From: Moniliella sp. 'wahieum'
Lineage: Eukaryota
NCBI GenBank assembly: GCA_003971905.1
Contig: RSEE01000021.1
Location: forward strand, 248,001 to 312,000
Reading direction: 5' to 3'
DNA: 64,000 nucleotides
Numbering within the stretch: the stretch's first letter is position 1; each line of letters opens with the position of its first letter. Under the pieces are notes generated by a model. The model was not told the DNA's origin. It ran no database searches and saw nothing but the letters and a program-made list of their open reading frames with translations. A program made the position numbers and the translations under genes. Of the stretch, positions 16,427 to 28,430 are shown piece by piece.

Positions 16427-18209
16427 ATGCCGAATACGGCAATTGGCATCGATCTCGGCACTACCTTCTCGCGCGCTGCTGTTTGGCAGAACGACCGGGC
16501 TAAGGTCATTCCCAACCACCTGGGCAACAGCACCACCCCCTCCTGTGTAGCCTTCAACGAACGCGAGCGCCTCATGGGAGAGGCCGCCATTTCCCAGATC
16601 GGGATGAACGTGGACAACACGGTGTTTGACGTCAAGCGACTCATCGGTCGCCGGTTTGATGATAAGGTGGTCCAGGAGGGCATGAAGCATTGGCCATTCA
16701 AGGTGATTAACGTCGACGGTCAGCCGATCATTCAAATTGAGTACAAGGAAAAGACCAAGCAGTTCACCCCCGAGGAAATCACGGCCATGATGCTAGTCCA
16801 CATGCGCAAGACGGCCGAAATGTACCTTGACGCACCAGTACAGAACGCCGTGGTGACTGTGCCTGCCTATTTCGACAAGATGCAACGTGAGGCTACGAAG
16901 GACGCCTGCACCATTGCGGGTCTTCCCGTCTTGCGCATTATCAACGAGCCAACTGCCGCCGCCATGGCGTACGGGTTGGACACATTGACTGATACTGAGC
17001 GCACCGTCCTCACATTTAATCTGGGTGTCCGTACCTTTGACGTGTCCCTGCTGGCTATGCGCTCAGGAGAGTTCCAAGTTTTGGCCACCAACGGTGACAC
17101 CCACCTCGGTGGCGAGGACTTTGACACTCGTCTGGTCGAGCATTGCATCGAGATATTCGAACGCAAAAGCAAGCCGAATAAGGGTCTCAGATCCAACGCT
17201 CGTGCCATTCGCCGTCTCCGCACTGCATGCGAGGTCGCAAAGTGCAACCTCTCTTCCGTCACCCATACCGCGATCGACATCGGCTATCTGCACGAAGGGA
17301 TCGACTTTGAGTGTGGCATCACCCGAAGCCGCTTTGAAGAGATGTGCGACGACTTGTTTCGCGGTATCATTGGCTCTCTCGAGAAGGTCTTGAGGGACGG
17401 CAGAGTCAAGAAGAGACAGGTCAACCCAATTGTTATGGGGGAGGTTCAACACGGATTCCCCGTGTGCAACGTATTGTCTCTGAATTCTTCAACGGACGCG
17501 ACCTCAACAAGTCGATCAACCCGGATGAAGTTGTTGCCGTTGGAGCTGCCATCCAGGCTGCCATCCTCTCGGGCCACCTTACGAAGAAAACAGAGGACCT
17601 GAATAACCCCTTGTCTTTGGGAACGAGCGTGGATGGGAATTTGTTCGATCCACTGATCAAGCGCAATACGAAGACTGTACCTCCAAAAACGACCAAAGTC
17701 CATGTTACTGTTGATGACAATCAGGACGGAATCATGATCGATGAGGCTAAGACTACGATGACGTTTTATGTGGACGCCAATTCGATCCTGACGATGTCAA
17801 CAAATCACAACAGATCGTCATCAAAAATAATGGTCGTCTGTCAAAGCAGGACATTACGCGCATGGTATCGGACGCGAAGCAGTACAAGGCGGATGATGAA
17901 GCTGAACGCGCACGAATTAGGGCCAAAACTGACCTCCAGTCGTACGCACAGCGCCTGCGCGATGAACCGGCCATGAGGGGCAACCTCAATAATCGCGAAA
18001 AGAAGGCGCTGGAAACGGCCATCAAGGAGACACTTAAATGGGTGGATGACTCAGACGAGGTTTCTAAGGATGTGTATGAGGATAAGCAGAAGGAACTGGA
18101 GGATATGGCCCACCGCCCTCAGAAGCGGGCTGAAAATCGTGGCCAGCGAAGAGGCCACCATCGTGGGCCACGAGGAGGGCGAGGCCGCCCGCGGGCGAAA
18201 CAAGGGTGA
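16427..18209 (+). pseudogene. Hsp70 copy 1, degenerate
   Basis: [22 protein letters not shown] and THLGGEDFD present. Phosphate-2 motif DLGGGTFD is changed to NLGVRTFD, linker LLDVV is missing, and the SBD has an 87-nt in-frame deletion (~17742) and a ~19-nt frameshifting deletion (~17799). Confidence 0.8.
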
Positions 18210-18856
18210 ACCCCTCTCCCCCCCCTTCATCTGAATGATGCAGGCCCTATCGATCGTTTCACGTCCATTTGGAAGAGTGGTCCAGGCCCTGGATTGGGCA
18301 CAATCATCGAAGGTGTCCGCTGTCTTCCCTAACTTTTGCTTCGCGTCGCAAAAGGTCAAACCCCTCATGGAAGCAACAATTACTATGCCCTACAAGCTGC
18401 TTTGATCATGCTCTTCTTCTATCCCATCCTGATCTGATTCCACCCACCATCTACTGTTACAAGATAACCGCGGTCCCACGAATCCCCTTGGGCCAGTGGT
18501 TATGAGATGAGTGCATTCATCATCCTTTTGAATCAAGTTGCTTGCATCCAGAGACCACAGCATCACAGCCTTCCCAACACGGTTGATGCAATATAGATGT
18601 TACGGGACGCGTCAGATCTGATCCGAGCTGGTTCAACCTGAGGCCCGTCTACTGTACCCATGCCCCCCAAAGAGCTCGTTCCCAATCCCCAACTATAACG
18701 TGCGACCATGCTGTGGCGCCTCCATTGTAAGCCGCCCGTGTAGGAGACACCGCTGGCGCATTCCTCTGTTCTTTTTCCTATCACCGCTGCCAGGGCCTAC
18801 TCCCATGTCTCAATCACCACCCCACTGCATGAAGCTCTAAATAGTTGAAAAGGCCA

Positions 18857-19455
18857 TGTCATGAGGGGAGTCCTCCCGAGGTGAAACCCACACCCCTGTA
18901 TTAGTTTATTAGAGGTATAAACGTTATTAAACCGTGGACGGTCAATCGGAGCAACGTACGGCGGTACGTCTGTGGCTTCCGATCCTAGCTGAACGCCGCG
19001 CTGAACGCTGAACGTGCTGAATCCTGAAGCCCGAGCGGGTGTAGAGGCAAGGGAGAGACCCTCCAGGTTGGGTGGCGTCTGCGTGCAAAGGGCGCTCTGA
19101 CCCTCCGCCGGAGGAAGGAGCAACGTACGTAGGTCGTCAGATCCATTGAAGTGGCCCCGAAACTCCGGGGTACCGTGGTTACCTGCTGGGACGTTACCAC
19201 ACTCGACGCGCTGTATTGGGCCGAATCAGACGGAGCCCTAACGAAGAGCGAGCGCTATACTGAGAGTAACCGCGGCTTGCAGCCTGTAACCGACGTGAGT
19301 CGTGCATTCGTAAGGGGGGTATAGAAGGTGGTACAGGAAACTGGATGCACTGCTTGAGTCAATACGTATACCACAGCGAGCAAGCATTATAGTAGACAGG
19401 GCTACTTATATACTACAAAAGGAAGGGCTGGAACGCCCCGTAACCTGCTGTAACA
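18857..19455. mobile_element. Solo-LTR-like element, copy B (internally deleted)
   Basis: GGCCA|TGTCATGAGGGG... start and ...GCCCCGTAACCTGCTGTAACA end. Lacks the segment matching ~15405-15775 of copy A. Confidence 0.72.
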
Positions 19456-25648: not shown

Positions 25649-26548
25649 ACATCACATCGTATGCCGATGAGCCATGCGACCATGGCGAGCCGCGGATGAC
25701 ATATCTGCAGCCTGAATAAAAATGTCCGCTGGCTCTCTCTCGCGAATCAAACGGTACTTACGCGTATTTGGTTGAGCCGTCTACGACATGCTTGTCTCTA
25801 ATACATACTACGTCAGGAGGTAACCAGAACGCCCCGTAACCTGTACCAGGCCATACATGCCACCACGCACCATATATGGCCAATAGATGAGAGTTGCATA
25901 TACCAAGTAATACGTGCTGTGGCCAACTTGTTATCAGGAGACAGAGAGATGAAGGCTAGAAATCATATTCATCTCAGTGTGGATGCTTCCGTCGGTGCCA
26001 GGCAGTGGGCCGCGCCAGCATTCGTGCGTCGTCAAGCTTCAAGACCGAAGTCATATACGTGTTGAACGTTGGTGGCCATATGTACATCGTGCATCAGGCA
26101 TCAACACGTGCGTTGCGGCCTTTGTTGAAGTTATATAGGGTTAGCATCTGAGGAGGCGGTGAGATCTGAGAAGGGAACGAGTTCATCCACGTTGAACGCT
26201 GTGGGATGTTGGCGCAGCCGAAGAAGCAATAAGCGCCCGATATGATAGGTGAAAGAGAGGCTGCTAATAGGTTTCTAGGGATCGCGGCCTATGGTAGTGG
26301 CGGCGTGGTGGATGGCCCGGCTGCGCACTTCCAATGCAGCCATCAACCATCAGATGCGAGGCGCAAAGTATATATAGAAATGATGCGAAATGGGCATCGG
26401 CACCAACCCCCCACCAATCCCTCCTCCAACCCCGCAACAGTCCTCTCCCCCAACCCCGCAACAACAGTCCTCTCCCCCAACCCCGCAACAGTCCTCTACT
26501 CCAATCTCCCCACAGTCCCCTTCTGCACGCCCTCCCTCCCCTCTTGCC

Positions 26549-28430
26549 ATGTCGAATAAGGCAATTGGCATCGATCTAGGTACTACCTTTTCGTGCGTTG
26601 CTGTCTGGCAGAACGACCGGGCTAAGGTCATTCCCAACCACCTGGGCAACCGCATCACCCCCTCCTATGTCGCCTTCAACGAACGAACGCTCCTCAAGGA
26701 GATGCCGCCCGTACCAGGTCGGGATGAACGTGGACACACGGTTGTTTGACGCCAAGCGACTCATCGGTCGCCGATTTGATGATAGGTGGTCCAGGAGGAC
26801 ATGAAGCATTGGCCTTTCAAGGTGATTAACGTCGACGGTCAGCCGGTCATCCAAGTTGAGTACAAGAAAGAGACCAAGAAGTTCACCCCCGAGAAATCTC
26901 GGCCATGGTGCTGACCCACATGCGCGAGACGGCCGAAGAGTTCCTTGGCACAGAAGTACAAGACGCCGTGGTGACTGTGCCTGCCTATTTCGACAAATGC
27001 AACGTCAGGCGCTAAGGACGCTGCTACCATTGCAGGTCTCCGAGTCTTGCGCATCATCAACGAGCCGACTGCCGCCGCCATGGCGTATGGGTTGGACACA
27101 TTGACTGATACTGAGCGCACCGTCCTCATCTTTGATCTGGGTGGTGGTACCTTTGACGTGTCCCTGCTGACTATGCGGAGGGGAGTTCCAAGTTTTGGCC
27201 ACCAACGGTGACACCCACCTCGGTGGTGAGGACTTTGACACTCGTCTGGTCGAGCATTGCATCGAGATATTCGAACGCAAAAGCAAGCCGAATAAGGGTC
27301 TCAGATCCAACGCTCGTGCCATTCGCCGTCTCCGCACTGCATGCGAGGTCGCAAAGTGCAACCTCTCTTCCGTCACCCATACCTCGATCGACATCGACTA
27401 TCTGCACGAAGGGATCGACTTTCAGTGTAGCATCACCCGAAGCCGCTTTGAAGAGATGTGCGATGACTTGTTTCGCTGTATCACTGGCCCTCTCGCGAAG
27501 GTCCTGAGGGACGGCGAAGTCAAGAAGAGACAGGTCAACGCAATTGTTATGGTGGGCGGTTCAACACGGATTCCCCGCGTGCAAAATATTGTCTCTGAAT
27601 TCTTTAACGGACGCGACCTCAACAAGTCGATCAACCCGGATGAGGCCGTTGCCGTTGGAGCTGCCATCCAGGCTGCCATCCTGTCGGGGCACCTTACGAA
27701 GAAAACAGAAAACCTGAAACTGCTAGACGTGGTGCCCTTGTCTCTGGGAACGAGTGATGAGAAGTTGTTCGATCCACTGATCAAGCGCAATACGACTGTG
27801 CCCACAACGGCGTCCACAGACTATGTGACTACGGTTGACAATCAGACACGATTTATTATCGATGCGTACGAGGGAGAGCGGTCGCTGGTTGCGGACAATC
27901 GATTTCTCGGAGAGTTTATCCTTGATGGCATCCCACCCAAGCCCCGTGGCGAGGCTAAGACTAGGGTAACGTTTTCGGTGGACGCCAACTCGATCCTGAC
28001 GATATCAGCCGTCGACATGCAGACGAACAAGTCACAAACAGATGGTCAAAAATAATGGTCGTCTGTCAAAGCAGGACATTGCGCGCATGGTATCGGAGGC
28101 GAAGAAGTATAAGGCGGATGATAAAGCTGAACGCGCCCGAATTAAGGCCAAAACTGACCTCCAGTCGTACGCACAGCGCCTGCGCGATGAGCCGGCCATG
28201 AGGGGCAACCTCAATAATCGCGAAAAGAAGGCGCTGGAAACGGCCATCAGCGAGACACTTAAATGGGTGGATGACTCAGACGAGGTTTCTAAGAGGTGTA
28301 TGAGGATAAGAAGAAAGAACTACAGGCTATGGCCCACCCCCCTCAGAAGCAGAATGAGAATCGTGGCCAACGAGGCCGCCCTCGTGGGCAGCGAGGAGGG
28401 CGAGGCCGCCCGCGGGCGAAACAAGAGTGA
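26549..28430 (+). CDS. Atypical cytosolic-type Hsp70, copy 3 (several small indels; gene or pseudogene unresolved)
   Basis: Colinear with copy 2 over its full length. [16 protein letters not shown] and YEGER retained. Tail [22 protein letters not shown]. Confidence 0.78.

Follow-up and report, generated by a model that had tools for sequence, protein, structure and literature searches.

A divergent Hsp70 family of Moniliella sp. 'wahieum' with rapidly changing peptide-cavity residues

Tandem Hsp70 genes and their family

The window, a stretch of 64,000 nucleotides of contig RSEE01000021.1 from Moniliella sp. 'wahieum', a smut-related fungus, harbors three tandem Hsp70 genes, A, B and C, which belong to a 14-member family. 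The genes, their loop segments in DnaK numbering and the neighboring repeats are as follows.

14876..15800, no strand assigned: dispersed non-coding repeat upstream of copy A, with partial copies in each ~5-kb unit
16427..18209, plus strand: Hsp70 copy A, RG-rich tail, no EEVD
17623..17649, plus strand: copy A beta1-L1,2-beta2, DnaK 401-409, TSVDGNLFD
17695..17742, plus strand: copy A beta3-L3,4-beta4, DnaK 424-439
19780..21100, no strand assigned: second dispersed repeat, lying between A and B
21841..23741, plus strand: Hsp70 copy B, the best preserved, no EEVD
23046..23072, plus strand: copy B beta1-L1,2-beta2, DnaK 401-409, arch residue R404 at 23055
23115..23165, plus strand: copy B beta3-L3,4-beta4, DnaK 424-440, with Y426, arch residue M429, Q433, F436 and A440
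26549..28430, plus strand: Hsp70 copy C, catalytic residues kept, RG-rich tail, no EEVD
27750..27773, plus strand: copy C beta1-L1,2-beta2, DnaK 401-409, with a one-codon deletion
27816..27866, plus strand: copy C beta3-L3,4-beta4, DnaK 424-440, with T429, Q433, R435, F436 and A440
28937..29705, minus strand: the upstream repeat in inverted form, 65-75% alike, after copy C

The loop segments of A, B and C lie in shifted frames. Genome-wide, the upstream repeat has at least 51 matches (40 of 232 candidates scored) and the second repeat at least 128 (40 of 985 candidates scored). An Hsp70-carrying mobile element was rejected, as these repeats are dispersed and do not flank most other Hsp70 loci in the 17 stretches compared. 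No perfect three-unit heat-shock element was found upstream of the four copies A to D or in 19 other upstream regions, canonical ones included, making its absence uninformative.

The divergent family comprises 14 full-length sequences on four contigs and in two haplotypes. Copy D lies on the contig homologous to that of A, B and C, and the 10 remaining copies are found on contigs C6 and C83. At two loci, copy number is three versus one between homologous contigs; the family turns over by birth and death, and some copies are decaying. It is lineage-specific and derived from a cytosolic Ssa-type Hsp70. Together with 11 of the fungus's own Ssa sequences, the 14 divergent copies split from 20 other fungal proteins with support of 99/91, and the N-terminus MSNKAIG fits descent from cytosolic SSA without a targeting peptide. 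Horizontal transfer is not needed to account for the family given this tree. In a wider FastTree rooted on Sse-like copies, which we take to be Sse from their motifs, the divergent clade was basal, probably because of long-branch attraction. Identity to Ssa is 61-66% for the divergent copies versus 33-38% for the Sse-like ones, which argues against orthology to SSE, SSZ or LHS. Among 8000 scored candidates we found no outside orthologs; the best single-copy matches reached 56%, as did the closest outside relative of the copy B SBD, and an Atlas search yielded ordinary Hsp70 clusters only. The own canonical Ssa (C45 copy) is 91% identical to proteins of Acaromyces, Tilletiaria, Tilletia and Meira.

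The copies differ in their state of preservation. Copy B carries one 1-nt frameshift near 23020 and a 19-nt deletion in its tail. Two parts of it scored 553 and 116 bits with Pfam (PF00012), identifying both the NBD and the SBD of an Hsp70, and the predicted SBD model (pLDDT 70) displays eight strands and lid helices, with a Foldseek E value of 4e-19 to 4po2 and a TM score of 0.41 that is explained by lid position. In copy C the aligner called 10 frameshifts, of assembly type. The ATP-binding and catalytic residues D8, T11, K70, E171, D194, G196-198 and T199 are kept in B, C and D; their DnaK numbers are presumed ones, anchored on motifs. Outside the loops, branch dN/dS was 0.32 for B and 0.30 for C (p 2e-4 and 5e-4 versus 1). 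In copy A it was 0.73 (p 0.24 versus 1), and the phosphate-2 loop is altered from DLGGGT to NLGVRT (17018-17032), giving N194, V197 and R198 in place of the catalytic residues. Copy A has also lost 12 nt in the interdomain linker (17603/17604), 87 nt directly after L3,4 (17742/17743) and 19 nt at 17801/17802, and it has probably decayed. Copy D contains an in-frame TGA and has 16 private changes versus 42-66 in the others; it may be chimeric or represent a collapsed consensus.

Frameshifts everywhere, the state of copies A and D, and a selection signal (below) that was stronger with doubtful copies included would fit a pattern made by assembly errors, collapsed repeats, misalignment or pseudogene decay. 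One-base frameshifts, however, were rejected as proof of pseudogenes: 10 of the 11 canonical Ssa copies carry 2-18 of them, indicating that those of the family are assembly noise. In four allelic pairs of canonical Ssa, pN is only 0.0007-0.0030, placing substitution error at 0.3% at most, and the loop differences are therefore not substitution errors. We masked codons up to 2 away from each break, and the signal persisted in copies under purifying selection and without single-copy-haplotype genes (p 5e-8). As errors would not single out cavity residues either, we consider an artefact very unlikely.

Loop divergence and selection on the peptide cavity

The sequence-only reading had quoted six loop strings, all of which are present where it placed them (from 17623, 23046 and 27750 on), and had claimed that differences among A, B and C concentrate in both loops. 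The corresponding loops of the own canonical Ssa read IETAGGVFTPL and KSEIFSTYADNQPGV. Among the three genes, pN was 0.205 at DnaK 401-409 and 0.264 at 422-438, as against 0.074 across the whole gene; the ATPase domain stood at 0.068 and the lid at 0.033. After scan correction with 2000 column shuffles, the concentration held for beta3-L3,4-beta4 (p 0.011) but not for L1,2 (p 0.99), whose 9-codon window was exceeded by 28 of 591 windows. In the six closest C6/C83 copies, both loop clusters exceeded chance (p 0.018 and <0.0005). The proposed charge swap is real as a D/R difference at arch position 404, but it may represent one event, since the same codon is found in A and C, and the alternative one in both B and D.

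We then considered the 30 cavity residues of PMC4408060 Table 4 in a strict test that took both local dS and double-base hits into account. A class with dN/dS above 1, at ~2.5-5 for cavity-lining residues, was supported in all 14 copies (p 4e-8), in the 10 C6/C83 copies (p 5e-8), in A to D (p 0.012) and in the six copies under purifying selection (p 0.031). With a tree built from the tract only, these values became 1e-8, 1e-8, 0.001 and 0.006, respectively. Diversifying selection, as inferred earlier, is thus supported at the family level but not for the three window genes alone, for which this class was unsupported (p 0.24; 0.16-0.46 across strict tests). Three draws of non-cavity codons gave p 0.93-1, and none of 44 null simulations, half of them with gene conversion, reached 5.99. 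M1a/M2a comparisons yielded 2dL values of 19 (A to D), 104 (10 C6/C83 copies), 92 (all 14) and 0 (11 canonical Ssa), the latter showing no positive-selection signal. The top selected sites were DnaK 404, 430, 409, 429, 402, 427 and 435, and at the family level sites with dN/dS above 1 were found at peptide-contact positions.

A second published list, the 13 crystal contacts of PMC3561046 Table 1, had higher dN/dS than the rest of the tract's codons in each of five sets (p 0.008 to 4e-18), and this mask outperformed 450 of 450 distant shifts of itself. Across 181 canonical Hsp70s, conservation of these contacts is 97% or higher. Gene-wide dN/dS was 0.44-0.56 in the divergent copies versus 0.014 in canonical Ssa; purifying selection on the ATPase core and SBD scaffold was supported in at least six copies and lacked support in 8 of the 14. 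A division into 'rim' (dN/dS 1.8-3.8) and 'pocket' (0-1.4) and a 22-residue list were made after viewing the alignment, and the verdict rests on the two published lists. The likelihood tests ran on our own code, most branch lengths being scaled from M0, and covered one genome in an error-prone assembly. Columns beyond 600 were dropped from the contact and cavity tests because the tail alignment is ragged, and several high-scoring tail sites were not trusted.

Might the cavity simply have been released from constraint? If peptide binding had been abandoned, as F436, A440, the D148 changes and the missing EEVD might suggest, the cavity would drift near dN/dS 1, and an older, less-converted tract with multi-base mutations would inflate the apparent rate. 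Synonymous divergence of the tract is indeed raised, 1.2-1.7-fold across sets and ~1.6-fold in A/B/C. The strictest single-ratio model, which includes local dS and double hits, put mean dN/dS of the 13 contacts in the six or four best-preserved copies at 0.93-1.4, not significant, and gene-wide M2a with double hits gave p 0.2-0.29 in the best-preserved copies. The loop set with its own dS had dN/dS of 1.4-1.7, indistinguishable from 1 in the A to D and C6/C83 sets. The lack of significance for A/B/C alone and the fixation in B, C and D of substitutions that inactivate DnaK point the same way.

The sequence-only reading had itself named equally raised synonymous divergence as an observation that would speak against selection. 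The rise, ~1.5-fold, is there, but a faster tract with unchanged dN/dS was rejected for the 26-codon loop set in A to D (p 0.009) and the 10 C6/C83 copies (p 4e-7), although not in B/C/D alone (p 0.11). Among the six closest C6/C83 copies, same-residue synonymous divergence showed no rise (0.169 versus 0.155). A mixture null of constrained and neutral sites with local dS and double hits was rejected as well, at p 4e-8 in the 14 copies and 0.006-0.04 in the best-preserved sets. None of the 14 copies departs from Q433, the backbone anchor (2dL 9.8 against dN/dS 1), and fast sites are interleaved with invariant 408, 412, 414, 415, 419 and 433. Relaxed constraint therefore appears unlikely. A runs test for mosaic structure among A to D, on 31 informative sites, gave p 0.13.

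Functional residues and proposed mechanism

The C-terminal EEVD is absent from three-frame tail translations of all 14 copies and present in both canonical copies checked. Canonical cavity residues I401, A404, F426, Y429 and V436, at least 97% conserved in 181 proteins, are replaced in A, B, C and D. Copies B, C and D have F436 and A440; L484 is kept, D148 is replaced in 12 of the 14 copies and lies at a break in the other two, and R167 is lost in five C6/C83 copies. According to the available text of PMC8215388, V440-L484-D148 forms the relay of the client signal, which is thus not intact here, and in DnaK F436 increases KD 40-fold and A440 abolishes client stimulation of the ATPase. Given these effects, B, C and D are probably uncoupled binders, not foldases, and they may bind little.

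We assign a probability of about one half to the following explanation as a whole: a family derived from Ssa whose cavity is under positive selection, with copy-specific reading of side chains and uncoupling from folding. The proteins would still bind extended peptides in the groove, and the arch (404, 429) and the rim (402, 403, 409, 427, 430, 434, 435, 437) would let each copy read a different set of side chains. The missing EEVD, the replaced D148, A440 in B, C and D and the R167 lost from five C6/C83 copies suggest uncoupling from the normal folding cycle, and the copies may hence bind or trap ligands in an ATP-switched manner instead of serving as general foldases. The recurrent change at the binding surface suggests that the ligands themselves change; they might be foreign peptides of viral, host or competitor origin, or else the fungus's own rapidly evolving proteins.

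The same statistical signal, taken in the sequence-only reading as a change of client specificity, would be expected if the groove were changing to avoid ligands, escaping an antagonist such as an inhibitory peptide or viral protein, or no longer competing with canonical Ssa for clients, while the ATPase domain served another role. Charged and bulky residues at arch and pocket (R/D404, F436) are consistent with this, and inhibitory peptides that bind the groove are known for DnaK (PDB titles; PMC4408060). Yet canonical Ssa, which would face the same antagonist, is near-invariant in the cavity (2 of 30 positions vary), and alleles and paralogs keep diverging without a single fixed escape form, as in the allelic pair c83_1/c6_2, in which 12 of 29 cavity residues differ. 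Such avoidance thus seems unlikely.

Comparison with known systems

With canonical fungal SSA Hsp70s, the divergent copies share the domain layout, the SBD fold and, in B, C and D, the catalytic residues; they differ in their 61-66% identity, the missing EEVD and the replaced, variable cavity residues. A close parallel is the lineage-specific Hsc70 expansion of Parochlus steinenii, with a conserved NBD, a divergent SBD, no EEVD and reported positive selection (available text of PMC9617917). All these features, from a species-specific clade to sites with dN/dS above 1, are found in the Moniliella family. The Parochlus signal is a branch-site one, however, with sites spread along the protein and no cavity mapping in that text, whereas in Moniliella selection acts among paralogs and alleles and is concentrated on cavity residues.

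In Halicephalobus mephisto and Diploscapter, too, divergent Hsp70s have expanded, and positive selection is described for several of their branches (PMC6872716). Those copies are heat-induced and were interpreted as dosage or heat adaptation, and the words 'substrate', 'client' and 'peptide-binding' are absent from the main text; the upstream regions of A to D lack a perfect three-unit heat-shock element. In HscA, specificity is narrowed by a bulkier side chain at DnaK 436 together with a modified arch (PMC8215388, available text), and the F436 of B, C and D would likewise make the pocket shallower. HscA, however, is one conserved gene with one client and keeps V440, L484 and D148 (same text), whereas the Moniliella copies differ from one another and lack V440, D148 or both. 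This variation, seen in the gene sequences, argues against a single fixed client of the HscA/Ssq1 type. In the literature we covered, mostly outside subscription journals, we found no report that locates positive selection in the cavity of Hsp70.

Few eukaryotic surfaces are as invariant as the peptide cavity of Hsp70, and 14 natural variants at these residues provide a ready panel for the effects of arch and rim on Hsp70 specificity. Should the groove merely have been abandoned, the family would clearly exemplify how an atypical Hsp70 emerges; should its ligands be foreign, it would represent a new kind of receptor in fungal non-self recognition. A speculative and rather doubtful extension of our explanation is that Hsp70 has given rise to an MHC-like cytosolic repertoire for peptide recognition, in which copies and alleles would hold specific foreign peptides (mycovirus, host, competitor) in an ATP-switched manner uncoupled from folding, with turnover of the tandem array in an arms race. 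We know of no presentation machinery for the Hsp70 copies. The MHC groove combines a conserved backbone anchor, positively selected side-chain contacts and tandem copy-number variation; the likeness would be one of analogy only, between unrelated folds and with Hsp70 copies that are cytosolic.

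The divergent Hsp70 family and its genome setting

The EEVD-less Hsp70 family derived from Ssa, the organism's own canonical cytosolic Hsp70, evolves by birth and death, with at least six copies retaining a conserved engine and with positive selection on residues of the peptide-binding cavity. A Pfam search of the assembly (69.5 Mb, 223 contigs) gave at least 86 Hsp70 matches, 66 of 219 candidates having been scored, all counts being lower bounds. The 55 aligned rows, minus two partial duplicates, represent 53 loci (at least 11 canonical Ssa, 14 divergent full-length, 10 Ssb-like, 9 Ssc1-like, 3 Kar2-like, 3 Sse-like and 3 ATPase-domain-only), with subfamily labels that we presume from motifs; housekeeping Ssa, Ssb-like and Ssc1-like genes are strongly multiplied. 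A tree of 45 proteins under LG+C20 places the 14 divergent copies on one side of a single branch (support 100/100) and splits them, together with the 11 own Ssa, from 20 other fungal proteins (99/91). An origin of the family by duplication within the lineage would fit. None of the 14 ends in EEVD, and contigs C6 and C83 carry 10 of them. The canonical Hsp70 on C45 has 91% identity to Acaromyces, Violaceomyces, Tilletiaria, Tilletia and Meira proteins, which places the fungus with smut-related basidiomycetes.

Among the ATPase-domain-only genes, L078:640-2330 (C26) is highly diverged, its long branch grouping with copies A-D described below. Another, 40% identical to Ssa, is the head-to-head neighbour of a canonical Ssa in each haplotype (L042:1511-3049 and L043:1710-3139, minus strand; C78, C74).

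The window (C21:248001-312000) has a colinear counterpart in contig C18, ~95% identical counting gaps, so both haplotypes are present in the assembly. SYF2 was found at four genomic places and several Ssa loci have old flanks in common, which, with the multiplied housekeeping Hsp70 genes, suggests ancient polyploidy in addition to the two haplotypes. The window contains the following features.

Features of the window
16427-18209: Hsp70 gene A, intronless, tandem
21841-23741: Hsp70 gene B, intronless, tandem
26549-28430: Hsp70 gene C, intronless, tandem
1175-5802 and 41280-64000: ordinary neighbouring genes (ABC transporter part, class II tRNA synthetase, SYF2, kinase, ankyrin protein, Ras-family GTPase, cyclin)

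Condition of copies A to D

A, B and C sit in units of ~5 kb each and are 83-87% alike. Their counterpart D is the sole copy on C18 (C18:228068-230050), with the upstream flank of A and the downstream flank of C. Three copies face one between haplotypes, here (window 16427-28430) and at a second locus (C6:195-204 kb versus C83:227-229 kb). D has 16 private changes, against 42-66; it may be chimeric or represent a collapsed consensus.

Outside the loops, branch dN/dS was 0.32 for B (p = 2e-4) and 0.30 for C (p = 5e-4). A showed 0.73, not distinguishable from 1, and carries larger lesions (12-, 87- and 19-nt deletions, an altered phosphate-2 loop); D showed 0.67 and has one in-frame TGA. Each start of A, B and C is preceded by a TATA-like box and a common upstream ATG, then a variable CAA/CCT-rich repeat (16280-16427, 21650-21841, 26360-26549), probably a 5' UTR, although it may encode a short N-terminal extension. 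In place of EEVD, copies A, C and D carry a basic, RG-rich, RGG-box-like tail (window 18120-18209, 28350-28430), for which RNA binding or nucleolar targeting would be a guess.

Selection on the peptide-binding cavity

The sequence-only reading had placed the differences among paralogs in substrate-binding loops L1,2 and L3,4 and proposed diversifying selection. The loop strings it quoted for A, B and C were all correct. After scan correction, clustering held for DnaK positions 422-438 (p = 0.011) and failed for 401-409 alone (p = 0.99); numbering was anchored on F426, 428-TAEDNQS-434, I401, T403 and V436 from an excerpt of PMC4664246. Among A/B/C, pN was 0.205 (401-409) and 0.264 (422-438), compared with 0.074 over the whole gene and 0.033 for the lid, and pS was 0.175 and 0.194 versus 0.133. 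Cavity residues differed far more often than the remainder in seven of eight pairs compared, c83_2/c6_3 being the exception; between B and C, 11/29 cavity residues differ versus 52/500 others (p = 2e-4). Several divergent copies have recurrent in-frame indels in the loops, and one C83/C6 allelic pair has a 12-nt insertion in L3,4 (L046:4189-6489, L050:4979-7215).

Codon likelihood models were written for this analysis (F3x4; codons up to 2 from each break masked). M2a improved on M1a with 2dL 19 in A-D, 104 in the ten C6/C83 copies and 92 in all 14, and brought no gain in the 11 canonical Ssa (0). The top sites over all 14 were DnaK 404, 430, 409, 429, 402, 427, 435, 458 and 403, interspersed with some columns of the tail and the N-terminus. 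Allowing double-base mutations weakened the signal, with p = 0.038 in A-D, 0.12 in B/C/D and 7.5e-5 in six C6/C83 copies. With its own dS, the loop set gave dN/dS of 1.4-1.7 (A-D and C6/C83 sets) and 0.97 (B/C/D), not distinguishable from 1. A merely faster tract, modelled by rate only on a 26-codon set, was rejected everywhere except in B/C/D.

Two published residue lists were used: 13 crystal contacts (PMC3561046, Table 1) and 30 beta-domain cavity residues (PMC4408060, Table 4). With dS from the surrounding tract, contact dN/dS was 1.7-2.0 for A-D (p = 0.07-0.21), 1.6-2.1 for the ten C6/C83 copies (p = 0.016-1e-4) and 1.4-1.8 for all 14 (p = 0.049-4e-4), every time above other tract codons; it dropped to 0.93-1.3 in the best six, in which purifying selection is demonstrated. 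Since constrained and fast sites blend in such means, we used a sharper mixture test, whose null holds cavity sites constrained or neutral and whose alternative adds a class above 1.

Mixture test on 30 cavity residues: p, then p when tree and dS come from the tract only
All 14: 4e-8; 1e-8
Ten C6/C83 copies: 5e-8; 1e-8
A-D: 0.012; 0.001
Best six: 0.031; 0.006
Best four: 0.04; 0.017
A/B/C: 0.24; 0.16
B/C/D: tract only, 0.017

With the tract-only tree and dS, ten copies taken without single-copy-haplotype genes gave p = 5e-8, and canonical Ssa gave p = 1. Three draws of non-cavity codons gave p = 0.93-1, and no simulation under the null attained 5.99 in 44 runs, of which 22 included gene conversion. 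These tests and controls give good support for positive selection on the cavity in the family as a whole and moderate support in A-D; the three window genes alone do not show it. The clustering is confirmed, and the proposal of diversifying selection is supported in part. One-base frameshifts are assembly noise, because 10 of 11 canonical Ssa copies carry them (2-18 each); substitution error is small (pN 0.0007-0.0030 between members of four allelic Ssa pairs). With that noise on one side and these controls on the other, an artefact is highly improbable.

Groove chemistry and comparison with known Hsp70s

The Q433 side chain of DnaK bonds the peptide backbone (PMC3561046); Q433 is kept in 14/14 divergent copies and T428 in 13/14. 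Where they can be read, positions 408, 412, 414, 415 and 419 do not vary, although they are interspersed among fast sites; pocket positions 426, 436 and 438 mostly remain hydrophobic, and 401 is T in A-D. In the structure predicted for B's substrate-binding domain (SBD) the fold is retained, with a modest pLDDT of 70. F436 and A440 are present in B, C and D, D148 is replaced in 12/14 copies and cannot be read in the other 2, and five C6/C83 copies also have R167 replaced; in DnaK, according to excerpts of PMC8215388, V436F raises KD 40-fold and V440A or D148A abolishes ATPase stimulation by client. Set between these replacements and the retained contacts, abandonment of the groove seems unlikely. 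The same excerpts describe arch pair 404/429 as modulating DnaK specificity; it reads D/V in A, R/M in B, D/T in C and R/M in D. Selection for avoidance, rather than for a repertoire, could also alter such residues; we consider it quite unlikely. We give about one chance in two to the reading that peptide preference differs from copy to copy and that these proteins, no longer coupled to the folding cycle, would bind or trap ligands which may themselves evolve.

Fungal SSA genes are described as evolving slowly (PMC3879978, in part), HscA specificity is narrowed by pocket and arch changes (PMC8215388), and bacterial conflict systems include Hsp70 in another role (excerpt of PMC7159879). In the literature searched, of incomplete coverage, we found no diversifying selection among paralogs mapped to the Hsp70 cavity, though some Parochlus sites could fall there. 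The Halicephalobus Hsp70 expansion shares reported positive selection with the present family (excerpt of PMC6872716). Parochlus shares more: lineage-specific expansion, divergent SBD, EEVD loss and positive selection (excerpt of PMC9617917), so that expansions of this kind are already in print.
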